Positions 5,988 through 40,688 of a stretch of 40,688 nt of DNA are shown here, in pieces. Position 1 is the stretch's first letter; the number at the start of each line of letters is the position of its first letter. The DNA is taken from assembly GCA_903927415.1 (NCBI GenBank), contig CAIYMZ010000119.1, forward strand, positions 1 to 40,688, given 5' to 3'. The DNA comes from an uncultured Alphaproteobacteria bacterium. GTDB taxonomy: Bacteria; Pseudomonadota; Alphaproteobacteria; Rickettsiales; UBA1997. The notes under the pieces were generated by a model. It saw only the letters and a list, made by a program, of their open reading frames with translations, was not told where the DNA came from and did no database searches. A program made the position numbers and the translations under genes.

Positions 5988-6008
5988 TTTTAAAGTTTTT
6001 GAAAAACA

Positions 6009-6034: not shown

Positions 6035-6082
6035 TAACAATTTGATATTCATGCTTAAAGACAGCTCTGCATGAGTTAAGAC

Positions 6083-6817: not shown

Positions 6818-6962
6818 AAATTAAATTGAACTCAGAGTGTTCTAAGGATTTTGAGTGATGGCGGTGATTTCTTTGACGGCTTGAGGAGGGAGTGTATTTT
6901 TAATACGTGACCGACGAAAGGCGGCAAAAAATCGCCGATAGAGCTCAAAAGCCGACGAGCAT

Positions 6963-7850: not shown

Positions 7851-7937
7851 AATTAAAAATGCTTACGCATTTTTAGAAAAAGTTGAATTGCTACGGAATT
7901 GCTACGCGCGAAGTAAATTCGCGCATCCGCAATGAAA

Positions 7938-10126: not shown

Positions 10127-10269
10127 TAGTGTATTTTTTAAATTTCAGAAATTTGCGAAAACGAGACATCAATTGAGGCGCGGCAAGGTATTTTTGGTAA
10201 AATAAAATGCAAGAATTCTGTCTAAAATTTTGCTAGCGAGACAACAAAAAAGAGTCTCGTATCTACTTT

Positions 10270-11307: not shown

Positions 11308-11332
11308 ATTGGGAGAGGGTTGATATGAAAAT

Positions 11333-12571: not shown

Positions 12572-12643
12572 GAATTTTGATTTCTTGCTTAGAATGGAAA
12601 GGTGCGGGAAGCTAGGAACCGCCTCAACTTTTTCAACAAATTT

Positions 12644-13417: not shown

Positions 13418-13465
13418 ATTGTTCGCTTAAGCGAACAATTGGCAAAAAACTTCGCGGTGGATTTT

Positions 13466-14446
13466 TTACCCAACATTCCCACCCGAAATCACCACCAGAA
13501 TTTTCTGATTTTTTTTCTCTGAATTTTTTTTCAAATACTGCACCACGCCAGCAATCGCTAGCGCTGAAGTTGGTTCAATTTTTTGCTGAAATTCTTCCGC
13601 TAATTTTTTTTGCCAGAAAAAAATTTCTTCTTCGCTGATTTCTAAAATTCCTGCGAGCTGTTTAACGTAGCCAAAGCAACGCTCGGAAATGGCTAGAGTC
13701 CTAGCTCCATCAGCAATCGTGTTTGGCGTGTCTTCGAAATGAAAAATTTTTCCCTCGCGCAGAGAAATCGCTACGTCATTGGCACTCAAGGGTTCGCAAC
13801 CAAAAATTTTTGCTGCTGGTGAGAATTTTTGCGCCGCTAAAAAACTTCCGACCACCAATCCTCCGCCGCCGCAAGGTGTGAAAATTGCGCTGACCTTTAT
13901 CCCCTTGGTGCCAATTTCCGAAAGCGCCTCGAAGGTTGCAGTGCCTTGCCCGCAGATCACATCTTCACCGCTGGAAGGGTGAATAAAAAAATAGCCTTCT
14001 TTTTGTTTTTCTTCGGCCATCCGATTCACTTCCGATCTTTTTTCCAGCAACACAACTTCCGCGCCCAAATTTTTTACCGCCGCAATTTTGAACGGCGAAG
14101 CGTTTTTGATCATGTAAATCAGCGCCGGAATTCCGAATTTTTTGCAGGCAAAAGCAATTGCAGTTGCGTGATTTCCTGAGCTCTGCACCACAATTTTTTC
14201 CGGAAATTTTCCGTGCTTTTCTTTGTAAGTTAAAATGGCGTTGAATGCCCCGCGAGCCTTGAAAGAACCGGCCTCTTGCTGATTGTCCATTTTAAAAAAA
14301 ACTTCAGCGCCGAGCTCTTCGTTTAATTTTTTGCTGGAAATAACGGGCGTATTTTTGATGTGATTTTTGATGCGGAAATGTGCGGCAGAAATGTCGTCGG
14401 AAGTTAGATTTTTTTGCATGGGTTTTGGAGGTGGCAATAGTGCCAT
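13466..14446 (-). CDS. PLP-dependent threonine/serine dehydratase family protein (serine-racemase-like)
   Basis: 326 aa with the SFKARGA PLP-lysine motif, the SSGNHA and GGGGL glycine loops, and no ACT regulatory domain. Confidence 0.85.
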   Translation of the reverse strand: MALLPPPKPMQKNLTSDDISAAHFRIKNHIKNTPVISSKKLNEELGAEVFFKMDNQQEAGSFKARGAFNAILTYKEKHGKFPEKIVVQSSGNHATAIAFACKKFGIPALIYMIKNASPFKIAAVKNLGAEVVLLEKRSEVNRMAEEKQKEGYFFIHPSSGEDVICGQGTATFEALSEIGTKGIKVSAIFTPCGGGGLVVGSFLAAQKFSPAAKIFGCEPLSANDVAISLREGKIFHFEDTPNTIADGARTLAISERCFGYVKQLAGILEISEEEIFFWQKKLAEEFQQKIEPTSALAIAGVVQYLKKNSEKKNQKILVVISGGNVG

Positions 14447-14554
14447 AACTAAACAGTAAAATTATTAATCGTTGTCTAACATGATTAGAGAAGGCAAAAC
14501 TTCAAATTCCACAAAATGTCAAAAATTTAATAACAAGTTTCAAGGAGTTTATGT

Positions 14555-20399: not shown

Positions 20400-21443
20400 T
20401 TATTTCCAAATAATGAGACATTTGAACAGCTCGCCCATTTGATCGGGGGCAATTAAACGGTCAATGGCAGAATTCTCCGACGGTGGTAAAATTTTTCTTC
20501 GCTCTTCGATACCGAGCGAAATTAAAAATTCGCGCTGGGTGATAAGCGAAGAATTTAATCCAAAATTTTTGGCAATTTTTTCGAGGGCGGAGAAATCGAC
20601 GTGGGCAGTGATGTCGCAATTTTTTTCAAAGATCGAAACTTTTTGATATTTTTTTACCGCTTGCAATGTGTTGGCAAACTCAGTTTTGGCGTAACCGTAA
20701 TCAAAATTAATTGCGATTCCGCCGTGATTTTTCAAGGCTTCGCAGAGTTGTGACATAAAATTTTTTGCGGCGGAGCTGTGTTCGAAAACAGCGCCGAAAG
20801 GCACATTTTCTTTTACTTCACTTTCAACAAATTGGTGAATTTCTGGATTGAAATTCGCAGTGACGAATTTGCCGGAATCAATCAAACGCTCGCACCAACC
20901 GATGTCGGTTTTGACGAATTGGTCGATGGGGAAGCAGTCGAAGAGTTCGTTGGAGATGAAAAAAAGTTGTCGGTTGTCGGTTATCGGCTGCCTGACAAAC
21001 TCCCTAGCGCTGGACGGGGTTACAAACCCCGTCTTGCTTAAATCTTCAGACAAAAATCCATCAAAATTTTCATGCCAATTCACCGCAAAATCTTTCAACT
21101 TTTCCCGCTGAATTTTTTTTAACACTTCGTTGATTTCAATAATGTGAAACGTTGTGCGCTCAAGAAAATCAATCGCTTGCGGATTTTTTTTCTCCGCTAA
21201 TTTTTTTACCGCGGATAAAATATCGAAAAATAAAGTTCCCTTTCCCGCGCCCATTTCGACGAGGGAGATTTTAGATTTTTTTGTCGAAGAAATTTGCAAA
21301 ATATACGCCGCGATCAATTCACCAAAAACCTGAGAAATTTCCGGAGCGGTAATAAAATCATCGAGAGGATTGCGAGTGCGATAATAGCCAGAGGCTGGAT
21401 GGAAGAGGGCGTGAGAGGTGAAGTGGGAGATTTTCATATTCAA
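20400..21443 (-). CDS. Class I SAM-dependent methyltransferase, MidA/NDUFAF7 (DUF185) family
   Basis: 347 aa with [16 protein letters not shown] and [11 protein letters not shown] motifs and SNELFDCFP. Confidence 0.8.
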
Positions 21444-27230: not shown

Positions 27231-28256
27231 ATGAGTAAATTAATTAATACTCTTCTTAAAAAAGAGAGTTTCGAATCACCGCCGATTTGGATCATGCGTC
27301 AAGCTGGAAGATATTTACCAGAATATCGCGAAGTGCGTTCAAACGTAAAAAATTTTCTCGAGCTTTGTTACTCACCAAAACTTGCAAGCGAAGTCACATT
27401 GCAGCCAATCCGTCGATTTGATTTTGACGCTGCGATTATTTTTTCCGACATTCTTGTAATCCCAGACGCGCTCGGCGTGAAAGTCGAATTCGTAAAAAAT
27501 GAAGGACCGAAGCTCGGAAAATTTGAATTGTCGCAGCTTAAAACAAATCGCATCGCATCGCATTTAAATCCAGTTTTCGAAGCGCTAGCGCTCACAAAAT
27601 CAAAACTTGATCCCTCGAAGGCTTTAATCGGTTTTTCCGGCGCTCCGTGGACTTTAGCCTGCTACATGATCGAAGGTGGTGGATCAAAAAATTTTGAACT
27701 AACGCGTCAAACTGCAATCCAAAATGAAGATTTTTTTTCACAGCTGATTAAAATTTTAACTCAAAGCGTGACCGAATATTTATCGTTGCAAATCAAGGCT
27801 GGAGCGGATTGCGTCAAGTTGTTCGATTCTTGGGCGGGAGTTTTACCATCGCAGCAATTGCAAAAATGGGTGATTGAACCAACTAAAAAAATCGTCACTG
27901 AAATAAAAAAACTTCACCCAGAAATTCCGGTAATTTGCTTCCCACGTGGTATCGGAATGAATTACAAAACATTCTCACGAAGCGTTATGCCTCACGGTTT
28001 GGCAATCGATCAAACAATCGAAAAAAATTGGGCTAAAAAAAATCTCGGACAAGTGCTGCAAGGAAATCTCGACAATTTTCTTCTCGCTTTTGGCACAAAA
28101 AAACAAATCGAAAAAGAAGTTTTGGAAATTTTGGAGATATTTAGAAACCAACCATTCATCTTCAATCTCGGTCATGGAATTTTGCCGGAAACGCCGATTG
28201 AGAATGTGGAGTTGGTGGTAAAACTAATAAAACAAAAAAGGAGAAATTATGTCTAG
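27231..28256 (+). CDS. hemE: Uroporphyrinogen decarboxylase
   Basis: 341 aa with the PPIWIMRQAGRYLPEYR signature and the DSWAG and GHGI motifs. Confidence 0.95.
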   Translation: MSKLINTLLKKESFESPPIWIMRQAGRYLPEYREVRSNVKNFLELCYSPKLASEVTLQPIRRFDFDAAIIFSDILVIPDALGVKVEFVKNEGPKLGKFELSQLKTNRIASHLNPVFEALALTKSKLDPSKALIGFSGAPWTLACYMIEGGGSKNFELTRQTAIQNEDFFSQLIKILTQSVTEYLSLQIKAGADCVKLFDSWAGVLPSQQLQKWVIEPTKKIVTEIKKLHPEIPVICFPRGIGMNYKTFSRSVMPHGLAIDQTIEKNWAKKNLGQVLQGNLDNFLLAFGTKKQIEKEVLEILEIFRNQPFIFNLGHGILPETPIENVELVVKLIKQKRRNYV

Positions 28257-29976
28257 AGTTCAAGTTCAAACACAGCATCAACATCAAGACCAAATAACTC
28301 CAATAGCAGTAAGTTTTGAATATGCGGCAAATGGAAGACATAAATTTCCAGAGCAAGTGGGTGGAAGTTTTTATGAGGGCGGTCATCTGGATAATAAATT
28401 TAAAAAATTAGCCCAACAGGATAGAAATTGGTTTCATAGATTCGCAAGTGCCAGTGGAAATATACCAAATGCGCAGAAAGTTGAAGGATTAGAGGTAATT
28501 GAAGAGATTAGAAAAACGGACCCAGAAAAACTGAAAGAAGCATTGGGACAAAAAGATAAGTTTGGTTGGAAGCCAATGCATTATGCGGCATGGTGTGGAA
28601 GTGACTCGGCATTGGAATCATTGGTGAGTGCGAGTGGCGAAGTTTCTGATCAAGATATGGGAAATATGCTCTTTTTAGCGATGGCAAATAACAGAGCGGC
28701 TGCAAATTTTAAAAAATTAACCGAAATTTGCGCAAGGTCTGGGAGACATCCGGAAGAATATTTTTTTACTGACGGAAGTTTACCGGAAGAGTTGGCTGGA
28801 GCTGGTCTTGGTGGAGCTGCTGTCGTTAGAGGTGGCGGAGCTGCTGCTGGAGGTGGTGGTGAAGGAGCTGCTGCTGGCGGAAGATTAGTTTGTACTAAAA
28901 ATTTATTAGATATAGCGGCGGAATATGGCAATGTGGAGGTCATGGAATTTCTTTTAAATAGAGGAAGATTGTCGATCGATGGAATGACTGATGTTCCAGT
29001 TGTGGATCAAAGACATTCAAAGCCTATGGACGAAAACAATCCAAAAATGATCCGAGGAAAATTTTCAAGCTTCGATAAAAGCCCGCTATATCTAGCAACT
29101 AAAGGGCTTCATGTTGAGGCTGTAAGATTTTTAATTGCAAAAATTGAAGAGAGAAATGGGGGAGAGGCTGTAGAAAGATACGTTGCTCAAAGGATGCACG
29201 ATAGAAGTGATTTTGGAAATGGTGGAGACATAGTAAGTCTAGCTGCACTAGCTGCCAGAGAAGGATTAAAATGGTGGAATAATGTTGACGAAGAACATTC
29301 GTCGCATGACAAAAAAACTCGCGATCAATTTAAGGAAAATGCAAAGGAAGGATTTTTTGATCCGGCTGGGTATCATTATGCTCGATTTAGCCCAGAGGGT
29401 GCGACCGAAACAGCGAGAGTTTTACTGCATGTTGCAACGCCAGAGATTACAATTTTTCCGTTTTTATATCCAAAGGAGGAGGTGATAAGGGAATGTGTCA
29501 TCCCAGAGAGAGTCGAGGCCTATCGAATGCCAATACTCATGGAGGCGTTATTTGCTACGGCTAATTCTTCTCCACTTACCAAGTTCAAGTTAAGTCGTGA
29601 TCGTGAGCCATATCCAAACATTCAGTTATTGGCGGAATTGCTTCAAATAAAACCAGAGAAAGAAAAATCCCTATCAGACATTGCGCTACTTGCAGTTTTA
29701 ACAGCAATACCAGGCATGGATACTGACGATGAAAGAGCTGTGCGGGCAATCGAAGAAGTGATAAATGACAACAATACTCTCAAAGATTTTACCCCAGAGT
29801 TTCGGGGACGTGTTCGCGACGATATAGCAAAATATGCGAAAGCGCAGATCGAAAAAATAAGATCCGAAGGTGGCGGAGCTGCTGCCGTTGCTCCATCAGG
29901 AGAAGTTGCGGCTGCAGGAGGTGCTGTGCTTGATGATGGAGGTGTAGAACAAGTAGGGAAAGACGGAAGAAGTTAA
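28249..29976 (+). CDS. Ankyrin-repeat protein with Gly/Ala-rich tracts (effector candidate)
   Basis: 575 aa with an AAGGAG SD at 28238-28243; the ATG overlaps the hemE stop (ATGTCTAG). ANK-like units are GWKPMHYAAWCGSDSALESLV, LLDIAAEYGNVEVMEFLLNRG and SPLYLATKGLHVEAVRFLI. Low-complexity tracts are GGAAVVRGGGAAAGGGGEGAAAGG and GGGAAAVAP..AAAGGA. Confidence 0.8.
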   Translation: MSRVQVQTQHQHQDQITPIAVSFEYAANGRHKFPEQVGGSFYEGGHLDNKFKKLAQQDRNWFHRFASASGNIPNAQKVEGLEVIEEIRKTDPEKLKEALGQKDKFGWKPMHYAAWCGSDSALESLVSASGEVSDQDMGNMLFLAMANNRAAANFKKLTEICARSGRHPEEYFFTDGSLPEELAGAGLGGAAVVRGGGAAAGGGGEGAAAGGRLVCTKNLLDIAAEYGNVEVMEFLLNRGRLSIDGMTDVPVVDQRHSKPMDENNPKMIRGKFSSFDKSPLYLATKGLHVEAVRFLIAKIEERNGGEAVERYVAQRMHDRSDFGNGGDIVSLAALAAREGLKWWNNVDEEHSSHDKKTRDQFKENAKEGFFDPAGYHYARFSPEGATETARVLLHVATPEITIFPFLYPKEEVIRECVIPERVEAYRMPILMEALFATANSSPLTKFKLSRDREPYPNIQLLAELLQIKPEKEKSLSDIALLAVLTAIPGMDTDDERAVRAIEEVINDNNTLKDFTPEFRGRVRDDIAKYAKAQIEKIRSEGGGAAAVAPSGEVAAAGGAVLDDGGVEQVGKDGRS

Positions 29977-29979: not shown

Positions 29980-30711
29980 TTAAAAGTTTTGACTTGTGAG
30001 CGACGCCACCGCATCCACAGTCCCAATGTGAAAATATTTCCCCGCAAGTTCGACACCTTTAATCCGATGAACCAACCCACCCTCACCCACAGCTGATTTG
30101 TAAAAATGCGACATTGAAAAACACTTTTCCGGCGCGCGCTCTAAAATTTTCGGATTAATAATTTGCAGCCCAACAAAAACGTGGCTCATTGCGCAATCGG
30201 GAAAACGAAAAAGTTGATCGCCGTGCAAATTAAAATCCCCGCCGCCGTGAATATTTCCTTCATAGCCAAAATAATCTGTGGTTTTTTTTAGGCCTAAAAG
30301 AATGTCGCAAGCGCTTGCGTCCCAAGCATTGCAGAGAAGTTCAATGTCAGAAATTGCACCGACATCTTGCCACAAAACATCGCCGTTGATTGTCAGCAGC
30401 GGTTCGGTGGGATCGAATTTTTTTTTCGCAAAAACTAATCCGCCGCCAGTTTCAATTTTTTCCACTTCGCGCGAAAAAATAATTTTTGGATTGTTCAGTT
30501 TTTTGATGTGCGTTTCGAGCTGCTCGGCGAGATAAAATCCGTTAATAATAATTTTTTTGATCGAGGAAATTTGGTCTAATTTTTCGATCGTGTAATCGAT
30601 GATTGCCTTGTTTTTTATTTTAACGAGCGGCTTGGGGATCGAGTCGGTGAGCGGTCTCATGCGCTCTCCGCGTCCGGCGGCGAAAATGAAAGATTGGGTG
30701 ATTTTGGTCAT
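29980..30711 (-). CDS. Sugar-phosphate nucleotidyltransferase (MurU/GlmU-N-like)
   Basis: 243 aa with the FIFAAGRGERMRPLTDSIPKPLV N-terminal signature. Confidence 0.8.
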   Translation of the reverse strand: MTKITQSFIFAAGRGERMRPLTDSIPKPLVKIKNKAIIDYTIEKLDQISSIKKIIINGFYLAEQLETHIKKLNNPKIIFSREVEKIETGGGLVFAKKKFDPTEPLLTINGDVLWQDVGAISDIELLCNAWDASACDILLGLKKTTDYFGYEGNIHGGGDFNLHGDQLFRFPDCAMSHVFVGLQIINPKILERAPEKCFSMSHFYKSAVGEGGLVHRIKGVELAGKYFHIGTVDAVASLTSQNF

Positions 30712-30988: not shown

Positions 30989-31792
30989 TCAAGATTGGCG
31001 ACATAGATATGAAATTTTTTTCAACGGATTTTTGATTGAATAAAAGGCTAGAAAAAAATCTAAATTTAGATGGATTTTATTCAGGTAGAAACGCATCAGA
31101 TTTTTTTGGTTAAGCTCGTATGGATGAATGTAGATCACCGGCTTCACCCGCTCATTTTCCAATTTCTTGAATAAAACTTTTTGCAGCAATAGCGGCAAAA
31201 CGCGCAAATAAAACCCTCCGCTAAAAGGAACGCCGCATTTTGGTAAAGGAATTTCAGTAATATTTCCAAATTTTGTTTCCACTTCAAACGGCAATTTTTT
31301 ATCTTCACTTTGACCATACATGTAAGTTTTAAACGGCATGTATGAGGATGAAAATGAATAGCCATTTTTTGCCAAAATTTCGTAGTAAGAATTTTCAAAA
31401 GGCATCGACCAGCTAGCAGCTCTGTAACCTCCAATCTCCCTCCCAGTCAAATCTTCAAGTATTGTTTTTGCTTTAACGATTGATTGCTCCCACTCATCTA
31501 AACTGATTTTATAAACCAAGCGATGGTCGAAACCATGTGAAGCAATTTCAAAATCAGCGTCACTTAATTTTTTAATAATCTTCGGATATTTTTGAGCGAA
31601 GCTTCCCAGCACAAAACAGGTCGATTTCATTTTTAACTTAGCACAGAACTCAATCCAATTGTCGATCATCTTCTCGTAATCCACATCACTAAAATCCGGT
31701 CTTGGCAATAAATTAAAATTACTGTCGAGCAATTCCTCTACATCAAGAGTGAGCCAAATTTTATTTTCTTCGTAAACCGAACTTACCGTCAT
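30989..31792 (-). CDS. Polysaccharide deacetylase (CE4-like)
   Basis: 267 aa with LTLDVEE (Asp motif 1) and ASHGFDH (His-His motif 2). Its ATG overlaps the stop of the upstream GMC gene (ATGA). Confidence 0.8.
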   Translation of the reverse strand: MTVSSVYEENKIWLTLDVEELLDSNFNLLPRPDFSDVDYEKMIDNWIEFCAKLKMKSTCFVLGSFAQKYPKIIKKLSDADFEIASHGFDHRLVYKISLDEWEQSIVKAKTILEDLTGREIGGYRAASWSMPFENSYYEILAKNGYSFSSSYMPFKTYMYGQSEDKKLPFEVETKFGNITEIPLPKCGVPFSGGFYLRVLPLLLQKVLFKKLENERVKPVIYIHPYELNQKNLMRFYLNKIHLNLDFFLAFYSIKNPLKKISYLCRQS

Positions 31793-33397
31793 AAATTTTT
31801 CTCTTTGATTGCAGAGATCAAATTTTTAGCAATGCGATCTGCATTAGCCATTATTGTAAAACTGTGTGGCTTGGCTGGAAGAGTCGTGAGCGCAGCACCA
31901 TCAACTACGTAAATTCCTAGCATTGCCGCCACTTCACCATCCTTGGTTAATTCGTATTTTTTTGTTGGATTCTCTCTCATTTTTAAAGTTGCCGCGTAGT
32001 GAATATCTTCACCTAACTCGGTTAATTTAAAACTTCCCGGCAGCATAAATGCACCATAGAACATCATAGTTTTTGTTAGGCGTTTTTTTATATCTTTGAC
32101 GACATCAAGAATGCCATCTTGGTAAGCACCATTAATTTGCATTTTTCCGGCAGAATTAATTTTTATTTTACTCGCCGAATAATCACCGCTTAAAAAACAA
32201 TTTCCTAAAATCATTGATGGCTGTAGCGCCAAAATGATCTTTCTTGCAGCCGGATAGGAGAAAGGAACATGATGAATATATTCCGAAGACAATATCGCAT
32301 CAGCAGGAAAAAGACTGGCTAGCGCGTAATTTTGTGGTTTTTTTTGTTAGCAATCACTAAGGAAATTTGTCCGGTGGAAAGCACTTTATTTTCTACTTTT
32401 GATCCCAAACGCTCCGGCATAAAAAATGCAAATCCCGCAGCAGGATTGGTCACCAGATCAATCTCTTGATCGTAAATTTTTAAAGCATCCAGAACCAGTC
32501 TGGTCGTAGCAATCGCACCTAACGCTAGAATTATTTTTTTTCCCGAAAATTTTACTCTTGTCGAATTTTTCTCATCCTCACCACTTAGCTCGTATAAACC
32601 ATCAACACCACTTTCCAATTTATCAATAAACACACTGCTGATATAGTAAAAATTGGGATATTTTTTTAGCTTCTCTAAATCAAATCTTGCCGAATAAATT
32701 GATTTGTTGGCACAACCCCAAACACATAGGCCAGAATAGCTACAAGCTTCTCTTTCTTCTTTTTTTCACTCAAAACCGCAATTCTATTGCGACCAATTTT
32801 AATATCGTTGCTATTGGCAAATTGAGGATTTTTTTGGTAACGATTTAATATTTTTTTTGCGTTACAATTAATCTCCGTAGCACTCTGTAATTCAATTCCA
32901 TTGCCATGAAATTCAGAAACATCATCATTTTTAACGCCGCTGACTCCGATACGCTTTGCCACATCTTGGTAAGATTTTTCCAGATCAGATTTTGTGATTG
33001 GAAATTTTTCTAAATCCACTTCATCAAAACATCCAACCCCCGCACCCCAAGCATTAGAAAGACCCCCAGCAGCAAGTGATCCCGATAAAATAAAGTTATT
33101 AGTCTCTGGCTGATATTTTTCGTGGTAGTCGGCAAAAATATATTTATTGGTTACTGCACGTAACTTGGGAGAAGAGGATGAAATTTTTTCCCAATCATCA
33201 AGATTATCAAAAATAGGATTCGACTCAGATTTAGTGCGCAAATCAAAATAAGTGGAGCCTTTCTTGAGTGAATTTTTTTGTTCATTGCCGAAATCAATCA
33301 TCACAACTTTTAACCCAGCTTCGATAAGAGGGAATGCAGCTGAAACTCCAGAATGACCACTGCCAACAATGATTACATCTTGATTAAATATGGTCAT
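31789..33397 (-). pseudogene. GMC-family FAD oxidoreductase split into three ORFs by two frameshifts at poly-A tracts
   Basis: The N-terminal piece has IIVGSGHSGVSAAFPLIEAGLKVVMIDFG (the FAD GxGxxG motif). The C-terminal piece has a GMC-like ...VVDGAALTTLPAKPHSFTIMANADRIA. The three frames join at A7 (32760-32766) and A8 (32338-32345) to give about 536 aa. Confidence 0.8.
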
Positions 33398-34641
33398 GCG
33401 GCGGATTTTAAATTACGCAGAAACTTTGTGATGATGCCCATAAAAATTAGCAGAAACTCAAACGACATCATCAAGACAATCTTCAGCGTCGCTTTAACTA
33501 ATCCGATTTCTTTGAATGGAATAAACTGTGACGAAGCTTTGGAATCGCTTTCAGCAATTATCAAAGCCAGTTTCAGACGTCGATCCAATTCATTTTTATT
33601 TGCAAATTTTTGTAAAAAAATTGGGCTGCGCGGATCAATCAATCGTAGTAAAACCGGACAGCTTAAATATATTTTAGAAATTCGCAGCGGCCCTGCTGAA
33701 GTCATTGCTTTGACATATTTTTTAGCAAAAAATTTATTATGTTTTGCGCCAGAAACATATTGCATCAGTGCTTTTCCCTCAAGAAGTAATCTCTTTCTTG
33801 ATACTAATTCACCACTCTGAAGACCATCCTTTAAATTTCTTAGATTAAAATTCTCATCAACTTTCATAACTCGCAAAGCCAGCAATCCATTGACACGCTC
33901 AGGATCAATAATTTTGATAAAACCTGCAAAACGTAAAAATAAATGTGGCAAAGGAATTAAAATTAAATGTCGCCAAAATTTGTACCACGCCAAATTTTGT
34001 AAAAATTCTGTAATCGCAATCGGATTTCTTTGTGCAATATTATGTTGAGATTTTGTTTGACCGCTGATCACCAAGCTCAGTAATACCTTGCTCAAATCTT
34101 CAACATGAACCGGCTGAACATAAATCTTTGGTAAGAATTCCGGCAAGATTGGCAAGATTTTTGCCAATTTACAAAAAGTACCGAAAAGCGCGTGCTCCTC
34201 TTCGCCATAAACCAATCCAGGACGCACAACAATGCCGTTATTTTTCAACACCTCTTCTTCAAGCAGATATTTTCTGTACCCGTAATTAGTTGGGGAATTT
34301 TTCGATGCGGATTGACTGGAAATAAAAATGAAATTTTTTATTCCATTTTTTTGCACCTCCTCCAGCAAATTTTTTAAAGCGAACAATTCGAGATCGATGA
34401 CTTTCTGATTCGATATTTGTGAATTAGTAACCGTAGCAAGATGTATTAGTGCATCCACCATTTCGAAAGAACGAGAATCTGGAATAGAATCAAGATCGTA
34501 GTGAAAAAAATTTAAACCATTTTTATCACAACATGCCGCTTTATTTCTGACTAAAGCGTTAACCTTAAAACCTTGCTGTAAAGCTGATTTTACTAGAGAT
34601 TTTCCGATATAACCATTAGCGCCAGTGATGGCTATTTTCAT
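33394..34641 (-). CDS. Extended SDR (NAD-dependent epimerase/dehydratase/reductase fold) with about 120-aa C-terminal extension ending in a hydrophobic helix
   Basis: MKIAITGANGYIGKSL Rossmann motif, a YGYRK (YxxxK) catalytic motif, and the C-terminal LKIVLMMSFEFLLIFMGIITKF. Confidence 0.75.
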   Translation of the reverse strand: MKIAITGANGYIGKSLVKSALQQGFKVNALVRNKAACCDKNGLNFFHYDLDSIPDSRSFEMVDALIHLATVTNSQISNQKVIDLELFALKNLLEEVQKNGIKNFIFISSQSASKNSPTNYGYRKYLLEEEVLKNNGIVVRPGLVYGEEEHALFGTFCKLAKILPILPEFLPKIYVQPVHVEDLSKVLLSLVISGQTKSQHNIAQRNPIAITEFLQNLAWYKFWRHLILIPLPHLFLRFAGFIKIIDPERVNGLLALRVMKVDENFNLRNLKDGLQSGELVSRKRLLLEGKALMQYVSGAKHNKFFAKKYVKAMTSAGPLRISKIYLSCPVLLRLIDPRSPIFLQKFANKNELDRRLKLALIIAESDSKASSQFIPFKEIGLVKATLKIVLMMSFEFLLIFMGIITKFLRNLKSAA

Positions 34642-34941
34642 TTTTTTGAATCTTTGAACACAACGTAACGAACTAATAAAAAGCTAACTCCTACACAAGA
34701 AATATCTGATAAAATTTTTGCCAGCCATTCTTCAGAAAACTTCGACAAAACGATTAAGATCAAAGATCCCAGCGCCATATTTACAAATAACATTGCGACA
34801 TAGCGAAAAATTTCACCCAATATTTATGCAATTGGATAAAACAAGGTGCACACCAATTTTTGCGATCAACATAAAAGTTGAAAACTCTAAAGCGTAAGCT
34901 GCGACTTGGACCAAATTGTAGCGCACAAATTTTGCCAACAT
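34638..34941 (-). pseudogene. GtrA-like small membrane protein, interrupted by a 1-nt frameshift
   Basis: The N-terminal half, MLAKFVRYNLVQVAAYALEFSTFMLIAKIGVHLVLSNCINIG*, runs from 34941 to 34813. The C-terminal half (ORF 34638-34820) reads ..GEIFRYVAMLFVNMALGSLILIVLSKF...LLVRYVVF. Deleting one G of the GGG run (34816-34818) fuses them into about 100 aa. Confidence 0.65.
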
Positions 34942-35750
34942 TACTTTCGCCTTAGAACAATAATATGATGCAGAGCAAAAATTTTTAACATTGGAGTCAG
35001 GCAGAATTCCAGTAATTTTATTGGACCCTCAGCACGTCTCGGCACCAAGGTTTTAAAATTAAGACCACCCGACAAAAGATATCTTAAGTAATTGGTTAAA
35101 GGCCTTTGATAGACTATCTCTAGCTCTTTAAAATTTTTTTTAAAAATCTTCCGATCGCGCTCAAAAATTATGTAGCTAAGGGCCTGATTTGGCTTGTCAT
35201 TTTCAGCAATATTCCATTCTCCATTCTTGTTAAAATCTTCTGCGGAAAATAAATGCTTAAACAGAAAACTTGCCACAAGCCCGTAATAAGGCTCAATCAA
35301 AATTGCAACTCCCCCAGATGCTAGTACGCGTTCTAACTCATTAAAAAATTTTGATGGCTCAGGAAAATGATGGAAACAATTTTGTCCGTAAATCGCTCTA
35401 ACGCTGCCAGAATCAACGTCCATATTTAATGCATCTAACACTCTATCTAAATGATCAGCTTCAACAATATCTGTTGCTAAAACCTGCGGATAAGAATTTT
35501 TTATCGGATAAACACCAGCTCCAAGTTCAATGGAAATACCTTGGGCATTAATCGAATATTGTTGATCAAGATTTTTGATTTCGTGATGAAATTCTTCAAA
35601 AACATGTCTTAAAATTGGTTTACGATTCAGAGCCTGCTTGTGTAGAGTCAATCGGTTCAAGGCATTGGGATTAAGATTCATCATTCCTTTTTCACACAAG
35701 CTGTCGCGTAACCAATTCAAAAGTTTTATTATTTTAAGATCTCTTTTCAT
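34941..35750 (-). CDS. Class I SAM-dependent methyltransferase
   Basis: 269 aa with SIELGAGVYP (motif I) and a Methyltransf_11-like post-I/II region ...CFHHFPEPSKFFNELERVLASGGVAILIEP. Confidence 0.75.
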   Translation of the reverse strand: MKRDLKIIKLLNWLRDSLCEKGMMNLNPNALNRLTLHKQALNRKPILRHVFEEFHHEIKNLDQQYSINAQGISIELGAGVYPIKNSYPQVLATDIVEADHLDRVLDALNMDVDSGSVRAIYGQNCFHHFPEPSKFFNELERVLASGGVAILIEPYYGLVASFLFKHLFSAEDFNKNGEWNIAENDKPNQALSYIIFERDRKIFKKNFKELEIVYQRPLTNYLRYLLSGGLNFKTLVPRRAEGPIKLLEFCLTPMLKIFALHHIIVLRRK

Positions 35751-36714
35751 CTAGATGGATTAGTAGCGGCGTTTGTGGAGTAATTGTAACGTCGTAATTG
35801 ATGAAAGATAAAATTAGCTGCATACCTAAAATAATTGGAAGAGTAGCAATCATCACCACGCCGCTTGAGGAAAATCTATTGTGATAAGCAGATTCTATCC
35901 AGGCGCTGGCCCCATAAATTGCGCCAAAAGATGTCGCCGCCACTCCTACAACCAAACAAACTGAAGCAAAGGAGAAGTCTTTGATGTAGTAGTTGTAAGC
36001 TATGCGCTTCAACGTATTGCGTAAATGCTTGGATAAAAATGGCATGACGATTTTTTTGATCGAGAGATTGCTAACTTCGCTGCCGTAATTTGCCTTCATC
36101 GGCACATCGACTACCACAGCACGAATGATGTTTAAACGAAACAAAATATCTGATTCGAAGAAATATCTTCCGTCGATCTTGTCCAAAGCCATACATTTTA
36201 TGACGTCAGTATGTATTGCGGTGTATCCATTGGTTGGGTCAAAAACATTCCAATAGCCTGAAGAAAGTTTGGTCAAGAATGATAAAATCGCATTGCCAAT
36301 CAAGCGCACGCGAGGCATTGACATCACGTCATCCGGATTAAAGAAGCGATTTCCCTTGGTGTAGTCAGCTCTTCTTTTAATGATTGGAGCAACAAACTGA
36401 TGAATTAATTTTGGATCCATTTGGCCATCGCCATCCACCTTCACCACAATATCAATTTCATCTTTGATGGCCTCTTTATAGCCCCGCATTGTGGCACCGC
36501 CAACGCCAAGATTTTTTTCGTTGTAGATTACGCGAACCCTTTCATCTCGACAGTTTTCTTCTACGTATTTCCCGGATTCATTCGGACAGCAATCGTCAAC
36601 CACATAAATCATACTCACCTCGCTACCAATCTCTTTGATTACGCCCAAAATATGAGATTTAACTTTGTAGCAGGGAATAATAACGCCAATTTTTTCTTTG
36701 GGTTTTGCAGTCAT
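35734..36714 (-). CDS. Family 2 glycosyltransferase with two C-terminal TM helices (GtrB/ArnC/polyprenyl-phosphate sugar synthase type)
   Basis: VIIPCYKV, VVDDCCPNESG and VKVDGDGQMDP (DxD) motifs, plus C-terminal helices FASVCLVVGVAATSFGAIYGASAWI and VVMIATLPIILGMQLILSFI. Confidence 0.85.
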   Translation of the reverse strand: MTAKPKEKIGVIIPCYKVKSHILGVIKEIGSEVSMIYVVDDCCPNESGKYVEENCRDERVRVIYNEKNLGVGGATMRGYKEAIKDEIDIVVKVDGDGQMDPKLIHQFVAPIIKRRADYTKGNRFFNPDDVMSMPRVRLIGNAILSFLTKLSSGYWNVFDPTNGYTAIHTDVIKCMALDKIDGRYFFESDILFRLNIIRAVVVDVPMKANYGSEVSNLSIKKIVMPFLSKHLRNTLKRIAYNYYIKDFSFASVCLVVGVAATSFGAIYGASAWIESAYHNRFSSSGVVMIATLPIILGMQLILSFINYDVTITPQTPLLIHLDEKRS

Positions 36715-36719
36715 AAAAA

Positions 36720-37793
36720 TTAAAAATAATCGATGTCACTTAGAGTGAGATGCAGCGCAGTTTCTTGCTCCATCGCCATTAAGGAAGGATTATTGGCGTG
36801 AACAAAAATTGGAGTCGCGTGCGGCAAAAACTTGTCCGGCACTCCGACAAAAGGAAGGCCAAGAAATTTTTTACTAAGTTTTGTGCGCGGATTTAATAGC
36901 GTAAAAATAATATCAGCATCAGACAACATCGCTTTTTTTATGAGCAAGCAACGCAATGCAAAAGCCCGAAGCTTTGATAATTCATCATTCAGCAAAAAAT
37001 CCATAATCACAAAAAAACTGCAACCACTCAATTCAAGCTGTCGCCACACAATATAACCAAAATATTTTTCCTGCCCGTACACATGCGATACGCCGGCTTT
37101 CCACAAGGGGGCATCGCGGAATCGCCATTGTAATATTTCTTGATTGCGCACCGTCAAAAAATTATTTTTCTGACATTCTTTCTGACAGAATTCGTCGAAA
37201 TCTTGCGGACATTTTTCGCTTAAATTTACCGGGATAAATTTTCTGACCAAGTAAAGAAATGCCTCGAGAGTAAGTCGATATGGCGCGCCCATTAACTTTA
37301 AAAAAATATTTCTCAGATAAAATTTTTCCGGAAATAACTTACCTAATTTTAAAGGCAGTCCGAATCCTTGAAGAGAAAATGGATTGGAAAATCGCAGAAT
37401 CTTTTTGTAAATATTTTCAGTTTTCTCGTTTGAGGAATGAAAAATGACGTCGAAATCTTTAGCCTCTTTAATCGCCAAAGTCAGAGATAAAAAATTGCTC
37501 ACTGGCCTTCTGTAGCTTGGATGGACAAGGGCATCGGTAACAAAGGCCGCTTTGATTTTTTTGTCAGAGAGCTGAAATGTTCTTGGCTGAAGAATTGTAC
37601 GGCCGACTATTTTATCGCCGTCTTTTAGATGAAGAGCGGTCGATGCCCCAAACGGACCATTCAAATGCTTCCAGTTTAAGTGATCTTTCGATGTAACCGC
37701 TGGTAAATCGCCATATTCAACGCGAGATAATTTTGCAAATTCAGCAATAATTTCAGGACTAAATTTTTCGGATACGATATTGCATTTGCTCAT
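36720..37793 (-). CDS. GNAT-fold (two-lobed, FemAB/CelD-like) acyltransferase
   Basis: 357 aa. The N-terminal lobe, ...KIVGRTILQPRTFQL...AAFVTDALVHPSYRR, resembles an acyl-CoA/ACP N-acyltransferase core. The assignment rests on fold-level resemblance only. Confidence 0.5.
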   Translation of the reverse strand: MSKCNIVSEKFSPEIIAEFAKLSRVEYGDLPAVTSKDHLNWKHLNGPFGASTALHLKDGDKIVGRTILQPRTFQLSDKKIKAAFVTDALVHPSYRRPVSNFLSLTLAIKEAKDFDVIFHSSNEKTENIYKKILRFSNPFSLQGFGLPLKLGKLFPEKFYLRNIFLKLMGAPYRLTLEAFLYLVRKFIPVNLSEKCPQDFDEFCQKECQKNNFLTVRNQEILQWRFRDAPLWKAGVSHVYGQEKYFGYIVWRQLELSGCSFFVIMDFLLNDELSKLRAFALRCLLIKKAMLSDADIIFTLLNPRTKLSKKFLGLPFVGVPDKFLPHATPIFVHANNPSLMAMEQETALHLTLSDIDYF

Positions 37794-37803
37794 TTGAGAC
37801 CAA

Positions 37804-38040
37804 CTAAATGAGAGAATTCTTTTTTAATAAATTCAGAATTTTTTCTACCGAATCCGCCAAAGCCATTTCTTGAATTTGCGCTATTTTTCCTGCGAATAGT
37901 TTATCAAGAGCAACTAGAATACCCAACTGTCCCAACGAATCCCAGTTCTCAACATTTTCAGAAGAGCTGTCTTTTGTAATTGATCCTTGCGGAGCTTTAA
38001 GTGCGATTTCAATTTCTGTCAAAATCTTTTCTGCGTTCAT
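37804..38040 (-). CDS. Acyl carrier protein
   Basis: 78 aa with the DSLG phosphopantetheine-attachment motif (NVENWDSLGQLGILVAL). Confidence 0.8.
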   Translation of the reverse strand: MNAEKILTEIEIALKAPQGSITKDSSSENVENWDSLGQLGILVALDKLFAGKIAQIQEMALADSVEKILNLLKKNSLI

Positions 38041-38059
38041 TTTAAATCCCTTAAAAATT

Positions 38060-38776
38060 TTAATTATGTGCCATGTAAATATCGGTAGACCAAATCATCA
38101 TTCCAAATTTTTCAGAAAAACTGATGTCGTTTTTTTCACGCAATTCACGCAGTAACGCCGCATGTTGGTACATCTCTTTGGGCAAAGGCCACTCTGCTCT
38201 GCTCAGCATTCTTACTGTTTTAAAATTGTCCTGTGCCGCAGCAATGATTTTATCGATATTGGATAAAGAAATTACCGGAAAAAATATTTTTCCGCCTTCA
38301 TTTAAATAGTTTGGAGCTTCATTTAAAACCTGCGTCACCAAGGCCACGCCATCGAAACCGGCATCGCATGGGACGCCAGTAAACCACGGAGAAATTTCTG
38401 CGACCGCTTTGGCAACTCCCGAAATATCATTAACAATATAATCAAATTTCTCACCCTGCCACGGCTCAAATACTGATCCGCATTTAGCCACAATGTCGCA
38501 AGAATATTTGGCGGCATTTTTTTTGGCGCACTCAACAGCTGACTGACTCAAGTCTGAAGCACAAAGCGCACCTTTTACTAAACCAAGTTTGCTTAATGCC
38601 AAACCTGTAACGCCAATTCCACAGCCCAAATCCAATAATTTTCCAGGCTGATTCAAATGTTCGTGAACTGACTGAACCAATTCATTTGTAGTGCCAGTTG
38701 GCGTAAAAGCTCCTTCGCGAACTTTTAAAACCAATTCCTGATCTGAAGCGAATTTGAAAGTGAATGATTTTTCCAT
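38060..38776 (-). CDS. HemK/PrmC-fold SAM-dependent methyltransferase lacking the NPPY motif
   Basis: GAFTPTGTT and LLDLGCGIGVTGLAL (motif I) are present. FDYIVNDISGV sits where HemK-type enzymes have ..NPPY. Confidence 0.65.
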   Translation of the reverse strand: MEKSFTFKFASDQELVLKVREGAFTPTGTTNELVQSVHEHLNQPGKLLDLGCGIGVTGLALSKLGLVKGALCASDLSQSAVECAKKNAAKYSCDIVAKCGSVFEPWQGEKFDYIVNDISGVAKAVAEISPWFTGVPCDAGFDGVALVTQVLNEAPNYLNEGGKIFFPVISLSNIDKIIAAAQDNFKTVRMLSRAEWPLPKEMYQHAALLRELREKNDISFSEKFGMMIWSTDIYMAHN

Positions 38777-38779
38777 TTT

Positions 38780-39469
38780 TTAAATGCCGCCATCAATGTT
38801 AATTACGCTACCATTGGTATATTCGGACTTCATCAGAAACTCAATGGCATCGACGATGTTAGTAGGGTTACCAAGCTCTTTCGAGGGAATTTCTTCGAGA
38901 ATTTTTTTACGATTTTTTTCGTCTAAAGTTTCGATTAATCCGGTGCTAAAATATCCAAGCGCGATCACATTTGAAGTGATTCCGAAGCGAGCATATTCAC
39001 GAGAAAGGACGCGCGACATTCCTAAAAGTCCGGTTTTAGCAGCTGAGTAGGCAATGGTTCCCGGCGCGCCACGCAAGCCAGCGACCGAGGAAAGGTGAAT
39101 CACTCTGCCCCATTTCTGCTCAATCATTTTTAATAGCAATTCCCGCGTCAGTAAAAAATTTCCGCGCAAATTGACATCCATAACAGCGTCCCAACTATCA
39201 ATGCTAAATTGTGCTGCAATCCCATCAATGCTAAGTGCGGCGCCGTGAATTAAGGTAATTCTTTGCGAGGTTTCTTTAAGTGTAGTGCAGAAATTTTTTA
39301 CTTCTTCTTCCGAAGATAGATTAACGTTATGCCAAGAAATTTTTTTATCAGAAATTTTGGGAGCCTTAGAATTATAAAGCGCTACGACATCATCTAATCT
39401 TGTTAGTAATGGCAGAATATCTTTTCCAATTCCGCCGGAAGCGCCAGTTAAAATAATCATATTGTCCAA
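38780..39469 (-). CDS. Classical SDR, 3-oxoacyl-ACP reductase (FabG)-like
   Basis: TGASGGIGK cofactor motif, the SSVAG...YSAAK catalytic Ser-Tyr-Lys, and NVIALG. Confidence 0.85.
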   Translation of the reverse strand: MDNMIILTGASGGIGKDILPLLTRLDDVVALYNSKAPKISDKKISWHNVNLSSEEEVKNFCTTLKETSQRITLIHGAALSIDGIAAQFSIDSWDAVMDVNLRGNFLLTRELLLKMIEQKWGRVIHLSSVAGLRGAPGTIAYSAAKTGLLGMSRVLSREYARFGITSNVIALGYFSTGLIETLDEKNRKKILEEIPSKELGNPTNIVDAIEFLMKSEYTNGSVINIDGGI

Positions 39470-40422
39470 TTAATAAGAGTTGCACCCCAGGAGAATCCTA
39501 CACCAAAACCAACCACCATCACCTTGTCACCTTTTTTGAGACGGCCTTGCGAACTAGCATCTTGCAACGCAATTGGAATGGTGGCCGAGACTGTATTGCC
39601 GATTGATTCGTAATTTGTAAAAACTTTTTTGCGATCGAGTTTTAGCTGATCAATGAGTGCTTCAATCACAATTTTACTAGCTTGATGAAAGATCACCAAA
39701 TCAATGTCTTCGAGAGTTAAAGAGGCTTTGGCAAGAAGATTGTTAATGCTTTGCGGAACCACTCTCATCGTAAATAAAAAGACACTACCGCCCTGCATTT
39801 CAAGAGTTTTATCTTTTACAATAAGGCTACCAGATCCCGATCCATCGGTGCCAAACTCAAATGGACCAATTGAGTTTCCTTCACTTTTTTCTACCAAAAT
39901 TGCTGCAGCGCCATCGCTGAAGATCGGACGACAAGTGCGATCATTTTTAGAAATATATTTGGTGTAGGTATCTGAGCATAAAATCAGGCCTTTTTTAACA
40001 ACTCCTGATTCGATTAAACTGCCCGCAATACTTAGCGCATAAACAAATCCCGAACAGCCGAGATTCACATCAAATGCCATACAATTTGTGGAAAGACCGA
40101 AGCGATTTTGGAGAATGCACGCCGTAGTTGGTAAAGCGTAAGCTGGGGATTGCGTGACTAAAATTAACAAGTCTATTTTTTGTGAATTAATTTGTTTAAA
40201 TATTTTCATTCCAGCTTCGTAAGCTAGGTCGGAAGCAGTTTCATCCGGCGCAGAAATATAGCGCGTTACAATGCCGGTTTTCTCAAAAATTTTTGGCATA
40301 TCCCAATCAGGATTGTCCGCTTTTAATACTTCCACAGACTCCGCTTTTGCTGGCAAATGATAAGCAATTGCGCTTATTTTGATTTTCATAAATTCAATAT
40401 TTTCAATAAGAACATCATTCAT
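39457..40422 (-). CDS. 3-oxoacyl-ACP synthase III (FabH-like KAS III)
   Basis: The Cys-His-Asn triad is present in NLGCSGF, FHQAS and GNTVSATIP. The start may instead be the internal MKIKISAIAYHLP (ATG at 40389). Confidence 0.85.
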   Translation of the reverse strand: MNDVLIENIEFMKIKISAIAYHLPAKAESVEVLKADNPDWDMPKIFEKTGIVTRYISAPDETASDLAYEAGMKIFKQINSQKIDLLILVTQSPAYALPTTACILQNRFGLSTNCMAFDVNLGCSGFVYALSIAGSLIESGVVKKGLILCSDTYTKYISKNDRTCRPIFSDGAAAILVEKSEGNSIGPFEFGTDGSGSGSLIVKDKTLEMQGGSVFLFTMRVVPQSINNLLAKASLTLEDIDLVIFHQASKIVIEALIDQLKLDRKKVFTNYESIGNTVSATIPIALQDASSQGRLKKGDKVMVVGFGVGFSWGATLINWTI

Positions 40423-40425
40423 CGC

Positions 40426-40688
40426 ATGCCGATCCTGAATAAAATTTTATTTCTTAAGAAGATATCTCTCTCCTATTTTAGCCTTATCTTGCTTGGTATT
40501 TATGGAATCTTTTACGTTGGAAACGCACTGTCTCCATCATCTTACGGGGTATTTTTAGAAAGAATCGGAGCAAAATCCGAGGGATTGGTATGGGGAACTC
40601 CTCGATCGATTCGCAGCGATGAGTGGGGTGTTCACACGCCATTGATACAGGTTGCCGTCAATAATAATTTTGAACGCTACAATAAAAC
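40426..40688 (+). CDS. 5' part of an integral membrane protein running off the window (candidate GT-C type glycosyltransferase)
   Basis: Hand translation gives MPILNKILFLKKISLSYFSLILLGIYGIFYVGNALSPSSYGVFLERIGAKSEGLVWGTPRSIRSDEWGVHTPLIQ... The frame is open to the end of the window. It has a basic N-terminus, one TM helix, then a loop with an acidic SDEW motif. Confidence 0.5.
   Translation, partial: MPILNKILFLKKISLSYFSLILLGIYGIFYVGNALSPSSYGVFLERIGAKSEGLVWGTPRSIRSDEWGVHTPLIQVAVNNNFERYNK

Follow-up and report, generated by a model that had tools for sequence, protein, structure and literature searches.

The 40,688-nt contig CAIYMZ010000119.1 (GCA_903927415.1), analyzed here as a whole and referred to as the window, carries a cluster of eleven genes at positions 30989-40422 of the minus strand. 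On balance, this cluster is probably a member of a recurrent and unnamed elaboration of Gtr/Arn-type three-component periplasmic glycosylation, in which an N-acetylhexosamine (HexNAc) would be de-N-acetylated, re-N-acylated, and added to a surface glycan. The first five genes form an ‘acyl cassette’ that encodes a KAS III condensing enzyme, a FabG-like reductase, a class I methyltransferase (MT1), an acyl carrier protein (ACP), and a GNAT-fold acyltransferase. They are followed by genes for a family 2 glycosyltransferase (GT2), a second methyltransferase (MT2), a GtrA-like protein, an extended short-chain dehydrogenase/reductase (SDR), a GMC-type flavoprotein, and a CE4 de-N-acetylase; a divergent gene beside KAS III encodes a membrane protein of the DUF7657 family.

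The proposed pathway would comprise seven steps. (i) Loading: on the inner side of the membrane, the DPMS/ArnC-like GT2 would load polyprenyl phosphate with HexNAc taken from a nucleotide sugar. (ii) Deacetylation: the CE4 enzyme, or PIG-L in most relatives, would take off the N-acetyl group. (iii) Acyl synthesis: on the private ACP, KAS III would join a short acyl-CoA primer to malonyl-ACP, and reduction by the FabG-like enzyme would yield 3-hydroxyacyl-ACP; MT1 may methylate the acyl unit or the amine. (iv) N-acylation: the tandem GNAT would put the 3-hydroxyacyl group on the freed amine. (v) Optional tailoring: the carrier-linked sugar may be worked on by the membrane SDR and the GMC flavoprotein, as an epimerase-like oxidase/reductase pair, and a methyl group may come from MT2. 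(vi) Flipping: the GtrA-type protein would turn the carrier-linked sugar across the membrane. (vii) Transfer: DUF7657, as a GT-C enzyme, would hand the sugar over to an acceptor in the periplasm, for which an O-antigen-type polysaccharide is the likeliest candidate.

More broadly, and with confidence that falls just short of even, we propose that widespread periplasmic systems edit the N-substituent of an aminosugar linked to polyprenyl phosphate. Such systems would use a private supply line for an acyl group with a beta-hydroxy or beta-methoxy function or some other methylation, an N-myristoyltransferase (NMT)-like GNAT, optional carrier-level epimerization by GMC and SDR enzymes, and delivery by GT-C transferases, including DUF7657.

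Conservation of the Acyl Cassette and Its Partners

Alignment-based scans returned five genome loci and 34 metagenome loci, designated below by L numbers; a genome scan with a single sequence returned none. The system is found in named metagenome-assembled genomes (MAGs) of Methylobacter, Gallionellaceae, Spirochaetota, Bacteroidetes, and Omnitrophica. This distribution over several phyla, together with the alphaproteobacterial window, argues that the system is recurrent (~40 related loci) and appears to have spread horizontally. The five-gene cassette KAS III-FabG-MT1-ACP-GNAT is syntenic in the Methylobacter, Gallionellaceae, Spirochaetota, and Omnitrophica MAGs, as well as in many metagenome contigs.

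Reference proteins were mapped onto all loci by tblastn to count components; 35 of the loci are non-redundant and continue past the GNAT gene on its downstream side. In 24 of 31 loci, the gene immediately upstream of GNAT is the one for ACP. A de-N-acetylase gene directly follows GNAT in 19 of 35, and one is present anywhere on the fragment in 26 of 35. The pairing of deacetylase and acyltransferase, assumed in the preliminary description of this DNA, is thus strongly conserved, with PIG-L and CE4 interchangeable. In the 22 loci of at least 7 kb, the components were found as follows:

FabG: 21 of 22 (syntenic)
KAS III: 18 of 22
MT1: 17 of 22, between FabG and ACP
ACP: 17 of 22
Deacetylase: 18 of 22
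DPMS-like GT2: 15 of 22, plus L007 with a short GT2 and DUF2304
GMC: 12 of 22
MT2: 7 of 22
Membrane SDR: 6 of 22
Recognizable GT-C: 9 of 22

Three roles are filled by different proteins depending on the locus. The deacetylase is PIG-L in most loci and CE4 in the window, L007, L009, and L017; the flippase-type protein is GtrA, an EamA-like protein, or DUF2304; and the large membrane transferase is PMT, PMT_2, an unassigned 599-aa protein, or DUF7657. Because non-homologous proteins replace one another in these three roles while the acyl cassette stays constant, the roles themselves appear to be required together, and we regard this pattern as the strongest evidence for that joint requirement.

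Like the window, L034 and L039 have MT2, GtrA, SDR, GMC, the five-gene cassette, and GT2, in a different order; at the end of the L034 set, PIG-L substitutes for CE4. The layout of L040 is the same, PIG-L included, with a different 192-aa gene at the MT2 position. The distant marine variant L037 retains GNAT, GMC, MT2, GtrA, PIG-L, GT2, and PMT, beside Wzt and an AT3-SGNH acyltransferase. It is without ACP and MT1, and an AMP-binding ligase and a metallo-beta-lactamase-fold hydrolase lie between its FabG-like and KAS III-like genes (11321-15029), which suggests that in this variant the acyltransferase family receives its acyl groups by a CoA-based route.

Two further variants were seen. In L009 (Omnitrophica), a gene for a B12-binding radical S-adenosylmethionine (SAM) protein lies between GT2 and KAS III (5696-7156), and a homolog follows PIG-L in L044 (1240-1356); it may provide an extra C-methylation step in some variants. 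In L007, from a Spirochaetota MAG, KAS III (7307-8270) and GNAT (10001-11078) are each split into two open reading frames (ORFs), either as a second case of cassette decay or through sequence errors in the MAG.

Organization of the Cluster in the Window

The genes of the cluster, with their supporting features, are as follows:

40426-40688, plus strand: divergent DUF7657 gene, 5' end (87 codons), cut by the window end; candidate GT-C transferase
39457-40422, minus strand: KAS III (FabH-like) condensing enzyme; true start maybe the ATG at 40389
38780-39469, minus strand: FabG-like 3-oxoacyl reductase, classical SDR; probable start the ATG at 39460
38060-38776, minus strand: MT1, class I SAM methyltransferase of MTS/PrmA/HemK type, inside the acyl cassette
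37804-38040, minus strand: predicted dedicated ACP, 78-aa ORF (ortholog profile against the PDB)
36720-37793, minus strand: predicted tandem-GNAT N-acyltransferase, 357 aa, uncurated family (weak Acetyltransf_9 match and AlphaFold2 model)
35734-36714, minus strand: predicted polyprenyl-phosphate GT2 of DPMS/ArnC/GtrB type (Glycos_transf_2, two C-terminal transmembrane helices)
34941-35750, minus strand: MT2, class I methyltransferase (Methyltransf_11)
34638-34941, minus strand: GtrA-like gene, disrupted (72-nt deletion and frame change)
33394-34641, minus strand: extended SDR, Epimerase/NmrA-like; its C-terminal extension (~200 aa) is hydrophobic and conserved
31789-33397, minus strand: GMC-type flavoprotein pseudogene in three ORF pieces (tblastn with the intact L005 ortholog)
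30989-31792, minus strand: CE4 de-N-acetylase with a DUF3473 domain (Pfam/NCBIfam)

The preliminary description had presented these genes as an eleven-gene coupled operon. The ORF map bears out the order from KAS III to CE4, with all cluster genes on the minus strand, and the Pfam and NCBIfam calls given below, together with a PDB profile match for the ACP, agree with the domains it had assigned. The overlaps it had listed as ATGA at 34638-34641, 33394-33397, and 31789-31792, TAATG at 34939-34943, and 17 nt at 35734-35750 are all present, and no junction in the cluster exceeds 19 nt. While order and overlaps are real, the operon is not intact, as GtrA and GMC are pseudogenes here. Two further details change. 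An overlap of 13 nt at 39457-39469 holds only if TTG is the start codon; starting at the ATG at 39460 shortens it to 4 nt (ATGA), and this is the start used in L010, a Logan contig (ERR12084952) that is 99.2-99.7% identical to the window over the cluster and reaches past the window end. Likewise, the gap between the operon start and the divergent gene, given earlier as 4 nt, is 3 nt with the annotated start and may be 36 nt, since KAS III homologs align only from residue 12. A promoter and terminator scan found sites fewer than, or no more than, in shuffled sequence and has no bearing on co-transcription.

The G+C content of the cluster (window 31000-40000) is 0.36-0.41, against ~0.40-0.50 for most of the window, which is compatible with acquisition by horizontal transfer or with the composition that polysaccharide loci usually have. 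On the same strand, 277 nt downstream of the cluster, lies a gene for a MurU-like sugar-1-phosphate nucleotidyltransferase (29980-30711), which scores below the MurU cutoffs.

The Proposed Glycosylation Core

The GT2 has a Glycos_transf_2 domain with a legible DGDGQ motif, aligns at full length with the NCBIfam AglJ model, and matches PpgS. A profile built from the GT2 and its orthologs matched DPMS (2e-18) and three ArnC entries (~4e-6) in the PDB. The protein has hydrophobic segments at residues 247-270 and 283-307, both C-terminal. Membrane anchoring and polyprenyl-phosphate specificity, on which the earlier proposal had made its case depend, thus find support in two C-terminal transmembrane helices and in the DPMS/ArnC relatives. 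Judged by these features, the 326-aa protein is a predicted GT2 of the polyprenyl-phosphate class (DPMS/ArnC type), not a processive NodC-type synthase. The GtrA-family gene named in the preliminary description is present, though its ORF is not intact in the window; intact orthologs are found in L034, L039, and L040.

The divergent gene, cut off in the window, is complete in L010, where it encodes a 609-aa polytopic protein matching only DUF7657 (PF24677). The family is widespread and unnamed, and a literature search on DUF7657 found no paper that mentions it. An AlphaFold2 model of the protein (pLDDT 90.7) has ArnT as its best Foldseek match (E 1.7e-3, probability 1.0, TM-score 0.42-0.46), followed by AftD, DPY19, AftA, ALG3, and PimE, all of them GT-C enzymes. 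GT-C enzymes carry an acidic motif in the first extracytoplasmic loop; in DUF7657, R63, D65, and E66 (R-x-D-E) are invariant in the first loop after the first transmembrane helix. A homolog in L012 (56% identical) and another in E. coli each lie directly beside a GtrA gene and a gene for a 329-aa GT2. A fold search of BFVD for phage GtrC-like relatives gave an uninformative result. Taken together, the ArnT-like model, the invariant loop residues, and the GtrA and GT2 neighbors elsewhere support a reading of the divergent membrane protein as the GT-C partner, and there are good but not certain grounds to view DUF7657 as the predicted third component of a Gtr/Arn-type system.

The E. coli DUF7657-GtrA-GT2 trio (L014 6001-9159; NZ_AP027599.1 4231444-4234602) adjoins genes for ABC2_membrane (Wzm-type), Wzt_C, and fused methyltransferase/GT2 proteins. 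It occurs in six of 5426 complete genomes, and at least three of the six have a broken match and an annotated ISKpn26 transposase. The trio looks like an unstudied locus for O-antigen side-chain glycosylation.

Predicted Acyl Supply and Tandem-GNAT Acyltransferase

KAS III contains the ACP_syn_III and ACP_syn_III_C domains and scores 268.9 bits against the NF006829 cutoff of 249. Its catalytic triad is legible as Cys (NLGCSGF), His (FHQAS), and Asn (IGNTVS), and its orthologs, 55-71% identical, head the cassette in other loci. The FabG-like protein matches adh_short (2e-35) and retains the S-Y-K residues, with a TIGR01830 score of 172.6 bits that lies under the equivalog cutoff of 297.75. The ACP ORF has no Pfam hit; its orthologs form a family with an invariant W-D-S motif, and their profile matches ACPs in the PDB (best 1.5e-5). 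The features of type II fatty acid synthesis initiation are thus all present: a KAS III triad, a ketoreductase, and a carrier protein whose WDS motif would hold the phosphopantetheine serine.

The cluster does not encode a full elongation cycle: no dehydratase, enoyl reductase, or elongating KAS (FabZ, FabI, FabB, FabF) was found in it. This makes a short 3-hydroxyacyl group, not a lipid chain, the simplest product, and the terms ‘fatty-acyl’ and ‘glycolipid’ used in the preliminary description are probably too strong. The most economical product is probably a C4-C6 3-hydroxyacyl group, with 3-hydroxybutyryl the simplest, possibly methylated. A long fatty chain is unlikely, though housekeeping fatty acid synthesis enzymes could elongate the unit.

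MT1 matches MTS (1e-12) and PrmA (3e-10) in Pfam, and its closest PDB relatives are HemK and PrmA; its motif IV reads NDIS instead of NPPY. We considered a BioC-like role, in which methylation of a malonyl thioester would give a disguised primer, which is indistinguishable here from O- or N-methylation. PDB searches with MT1, MT2, and the SDR returned generic relatives only and gave no clue to substrates.

The acyltransferase belongs to an uncurated family. It has only a weak, sub-threshold match to Acetyltransf_9 in Pfam, and a sequence search of the PDB gave no match even at E<=10. Its AlphaFold2 model (pLDDT 88) has a tandem GNAT fold, for which the best Foldseek matches are N-myristoyltransferases and Eis-like acetyltransferases (E ~1e-13, TM-score ~0.55, identity 10-14%). 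These results support a predicted NMT/Eis-like tandem-GNAT acyltransferase. The family ends in D-(L/I)-D-Y-F in all 12 aligned members; a C-terminal carboxylate takes part in catalysis in NMT and Eis, and the invariant C-terminus is suggestive of a similar role by analogy. A word-indexed search found 12 relatives; when 1.84 billion representatives were searched with a profile, 128 reached E<=1e-30 and 650 reached E<=1e-10. For ten family representatives sampled, the sole source name given was ‘hypothetical protein’.

Deacetylase and Candidate Tailoring Enzymes

The CE4 protein matches Polysacc_deac_1 (8e-14), DUF3473 (4e-16), and TIGR03006 (4e-44, under its cutoff). Its orthologs flank the cassette in the three other loci with CE4, a place taken by PIG-L in most of the rest.

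The extended SDR has hydrophobic segments at residues 226-245 and 381-408 and is paired with a GMC gene in L005, L024, L034, L039, and L040. A profile of intact GMC orthologs gave weak matches to pyranose 2-oxidase, cellobiose and fructose dehydrogenases, and paromomycin oxidase. As the GMC enzymes among these matches are sugar oxidases or dehydrogenases, the GMC and SDR proteins would fit an oxidase/reductase epimerization pair of the DprE1/DprE2 kind. In L034 and L039, MT2 orthologs with 46-52% identity are flanked by GT2 and GtrA; MT2 is also found in L020, L037, L038, L041, and L042.

Disrupted Genes and the Source Organism

In the window, the GtrA-like gene falls into two ORFs (34813-34941 and 34638-34820), having lost 72 nt at position 34825 relative to L010, plus a frame change. 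The L010 copy, which hits GtrA_DPMS_TM weakly, is itself out of frame in a T9 run (L010 7600-7700), where one more T (T10) restores a 125-aa ORF that matches intact orthologs. The 72-nt loss in the window spans the very T tract that is T9 in L010. The two lesions could reflect slipped-strand ON/OFF switching followed by irreversible loss, or, for L010, a homopolymer assembly error.

The GMC gene lies in three ORFs (32675-33397, 32319-32633, and 31789-32292), and tblastn of the intact 532-aa ortholog from L005 covers the region in three frames. A frameshift near 32767, in an A-rich run, is common to the window and L010; a second lesion near 32337 (1-nt loss, CC versus CCC after an A8 run) is found in the window only. 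As one GMC frameshift is shared by two assemblies, the GtrA and GMC lesions are, at least in part, real features of this lineage. With both genes inactivated, the pathway in this genome would be impaired, switched off, or reliant on substitutes.

The remaining nine genes are full length relative to their orthologs. Between them and their L010 counterparts there are 33 synonymous and 21 nonsynonymous differences (pN/pS 0.18), which suggests that they were under selection until recently; the GNAT differs from the sibling protein P0001 at one residue, for which reason a lookup of the exact GNAT protein returned nothing. The GT2 gene (35734-36714) holds 28 of the 54 scored coding differences between the window and L010, with a pS of 0.075 versus at most 0.046 in neighboring genes, which suggests a recombination patch in an otherwise near-identical locus.

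The source organism appears to be host-associated. The ClpX of the window has its nearest named relatives in a RIFCSPLOWO2 Alphaproteobacteria MAG and in one of Rickettsiales (83-85%). Elsewhere in the window are genes for an ankyrin-repeat protein with long Gly/Ala low-complexity runs (28249-29976), a 777-aa pentapeptide-repeat protein (14555-16888), and a Methyltransf_28 (NDUFAF7-like) protein (20400-21443). Together with the ClpX relatives, these proteins suggest a host-associated, Rickettsiales-like alphaproteobacterium.

It is a serious possibility, though one we place distinctly below even, that the locus in this organism is a decaying or switched-off relic that makes no modified glycan, its intact genes simply not yet degraded. 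Host-associated lineages accumulate pseudogenes, and the 72-nt deletion and frame change in GtrA, with two GMC frameshifts of which one recurs in an independent assembly, are what such decay would leave. Yet the full length of the nine other genes and their pN/pS argue the other way. Moreover, GMC and SDR are absent from many functional-looking relatives and hence optional, and the sibling GtrA is one T short of intact, so that ON/OFF switching fits as well as decay. This alternative concerns the state of the local locus and not the nature of the system.

Proposed Order of Reactions and Probable Acceptor

Where the surroundings of related loci indicate an acceptor, they include Wzt, the AT3-SGNH acyltransferase, and the ABC-transporter O-antigen locus of E. 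coli, and none of them contain lipid A genes. These contexts point to an O-antigen-type glycan as the probable target. Lipid A, the acceptor in the Arn, Lgm, and Flm systems that the preliminary description had cited, finds no support and was rejected on indirect evidence: an N-acyltransferase/ACP cassette accompanies the deacetylase, and the contexts seen are of O-antigen type.

The same enzymes could also act in another order, with HexNAc deacetylated and N-acylated as a nucleotide sugar and then passed to the GT2 and GT-C enzymes or to a conventional cytoplasmic glycosyltransferase. We consider this order unlikely, although several observations speak for it. No hydrophobic segment was found in the deacetylase or the GNAT, both of which are soluble; LpxC acts on a UDP-sugar; in L005, SDR, GMC, and the cassette are immediately preceded by genes for an NTP-transferase, a 4,6-dehydratase, a DegT aminotransferase, and a reductase; and L001, L009, and L040 lie among ordinary GT2/GT4 polysaccharide genes. 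However, ArnD and NaxD are soluble or peripheral and yet act on carrier-linked sugars. ArnD (a CE4 enzyme), NaxD, and LgmC all deacylate carrier-linked aminosugars, and PIG-L, which deacetylates N-acetylglucosaminyl phosphatidylinositol, belongs to a family that acts on GlcNAc glycosides, not on UDP-GlcNAc. In addition, the cassette accompanies DPMS-like GT2, flippase-type, and GT-C genes across phyla, and the accompanying SDR is membrane-anchored. The preliminary description had staked its proposal on homologous clusters not being already assigned to a nucleotide-sugar N-acyl pathway, and no such assignment was found in the literature. Nor did the cassette or the GNAT family turn up in literature searches that combined GtrA, undecaprenyl phosphate, deacetylase, ACP, N-acyl, 3-hydroxybutanoyl, and FabH.

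A free lipo-oligosaccharide or glycolipid, made in the style of Nod factors or biosurfactants with no modification of a surface glycan, is very improbable. The enzyme logic does parallel that of NodC, NodB, NodA, NodF, NodE, NodG, and NodS; there are weak NCBIfam matches to NodB (2e-9), NodG (4e-41), and NodC (2e-5), and L001 has a NodU-like carbamoyltransferase. Nevertheless, the 326-aa DPMS/ArnC-type GT2 reaches only 23.6 bits against the NodC cutoff of 550, and the deacetylase scores 37 against the NodB cutoff of 240. The acyltransferase is a tandem GNAT with no NodA homolog in sight, no NodIJ exporter was seen, and the GtrA-type and GT-C partners, which serve carrier-mediated transfer, recur from locus to locus. 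The Nod-factor reading was rejected on these grounds.

Several points weigh against the carrier-level pathway that we favor. We infer each of its biochemical steps from comparative genomics and structure prediction, and the role of MT1 and the length of the acyl chain are guesses. Fold scores behind the GT-C assignment of DUF7657 are modest (E 1.7e-3, TM-score 0.42-0.46), and a profile-profile comparison by hhalign detected no link between this family and the PMT-like GT-C proteins encoded elsewhere. The co-occurrence counts are lower bounds of uncertain ascertainment, since many of the related contigs are short. The nucleotide-sugar aminotransferase set in L005 means that the acyltransferase could take an NDP-aminosugar in some loci. 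Lastly, with GtrA and GMC broken in the window, the local locus may not make the product.

If the proposal is correct, it would extend the Gtr/Arn scheme from sugar transfer and amine unmasking to the bespoke assembly of N-acyl sugars on a lipid carrier, and would explain how some unusual N-acyl aminosugar side branches of surface glycans are made. It would also give candidate functions to three uncurated families, namely the tandem GNAT, DUF7657, and the SDR with a C-terminal membrane domain, and add a second carrier-level redox/epimerase pair, analogous to DprE1/DprE2. The enzymes, being modular, could serve glycoengineering, and the GtrA and GMC lesions would illustrate the loss or switching of a surface-antigen modification in a probably host-associated alphaproteobacterium.

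Comparison with Known Systems

The closest known systems are Arn (ArnC/ArnD/ArnE-F/ArnT), Bordetella LgmABC, and Francisella FlmF2/NaxD/FlmK, which likewise combine a polyprenyl-phosphate GT2, a deacylase acting before the flip, a small flippase-type protein, and a GT-C transferase. In Arn, the deacylase ArnD is a CE4 protein like the deacetylase of the cluster, and the best structural relatives of GT2 and DUF7657 include ArnC and ArnT, respectively. However, these systems leave the amine free, as a positive charge on lipid A, whereas the acyl cassette and N-acyltransferase of the cluster imply re-acylation.

O-antigen glucosylation by GtrABC and the Gram-positive systems of CsbB/GtcA/YfhO type share with the cluster a GT2 with C-terminal transmembrane helices, a protein of the GtrA family (its gene being disrupted in the window), and a variable GT-C of serotype type; precisely this trio is formed by DUF7657, GtrA, and GT2 in L012 and E. 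coli. Unlike the cluster, which adds up to eight sugar-editing enzymes, classical Gtr systems transfer an unmodified hexose.

Redox or epimerase tailoring of a carrier-linked sugar before export is common to the pentofuranose three-component systems (PMC11127046) and mycobacterial DprE1/DprE2, whose logic the SDR and flavoprotein pair of the cluster resembles. On sequence and genetic-context grounds, Kelly et al. (PNAS 2024, PMC11127046) inferred undP-ribofuranose to be the substrate of an SDR epimerase belonging to a three-component system, and stated that no other epimerase was known to them in O-antigen side-chain glycosylation systems; carrier-level sugar tailoring therefore has a precedent but is rare. 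These systems differ from the cluster in using pentoses derived from phosphoribosyl pyrophosphate, with no deacetylation or acylation, and DprE1 is of VAO type in contrast to the GMC-like flavoprotein of the cluster.

The cluster GNAT is like the tandem GNATs NMT and Eis in its predicted fold, and the strictly conserved C-terminal end of its family is suggestive of a further parallel. It would differ from them in substrates, as NMT and Eis use a protein or an aminoglycoside with acyl-CoA, and the cluster GNAT probably uses a sugar amine with acyl-ACP.

The chemistry proposed for the cluster has its own relatives. Deacetylation followed by N-acylation is carried out by NodB/NodA, LpxC/LpxD, Orf2*/Orf11* of teicoplanin, and TunE/TunC/TunK of tunicamycin. 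As proposed for the cluster, an N-acetyl group is removed from a hexosamine by a CE4, PIG-L, or LpxC-type enzyme and an acyl group is added, in several cases with a dedicated ACP, and Nod factors also receive an N-methyl group. In tunicamycin, TunC is described as a putative N-acyltransferase and TunK/L as the acyl supply (PMC6105854). These pathways differ from the cluster in having no polyprenyl-phosphate, flippase, and GT-C framework, and their acyltransferases are NodA, LpxD, and Orf11*, not tandem GNATs. What appears to be new here, and what we found no description of, is the combination of a Gtr/Arn framework with deacetylate-then-N-acylate chemistry, each of which is known separately.

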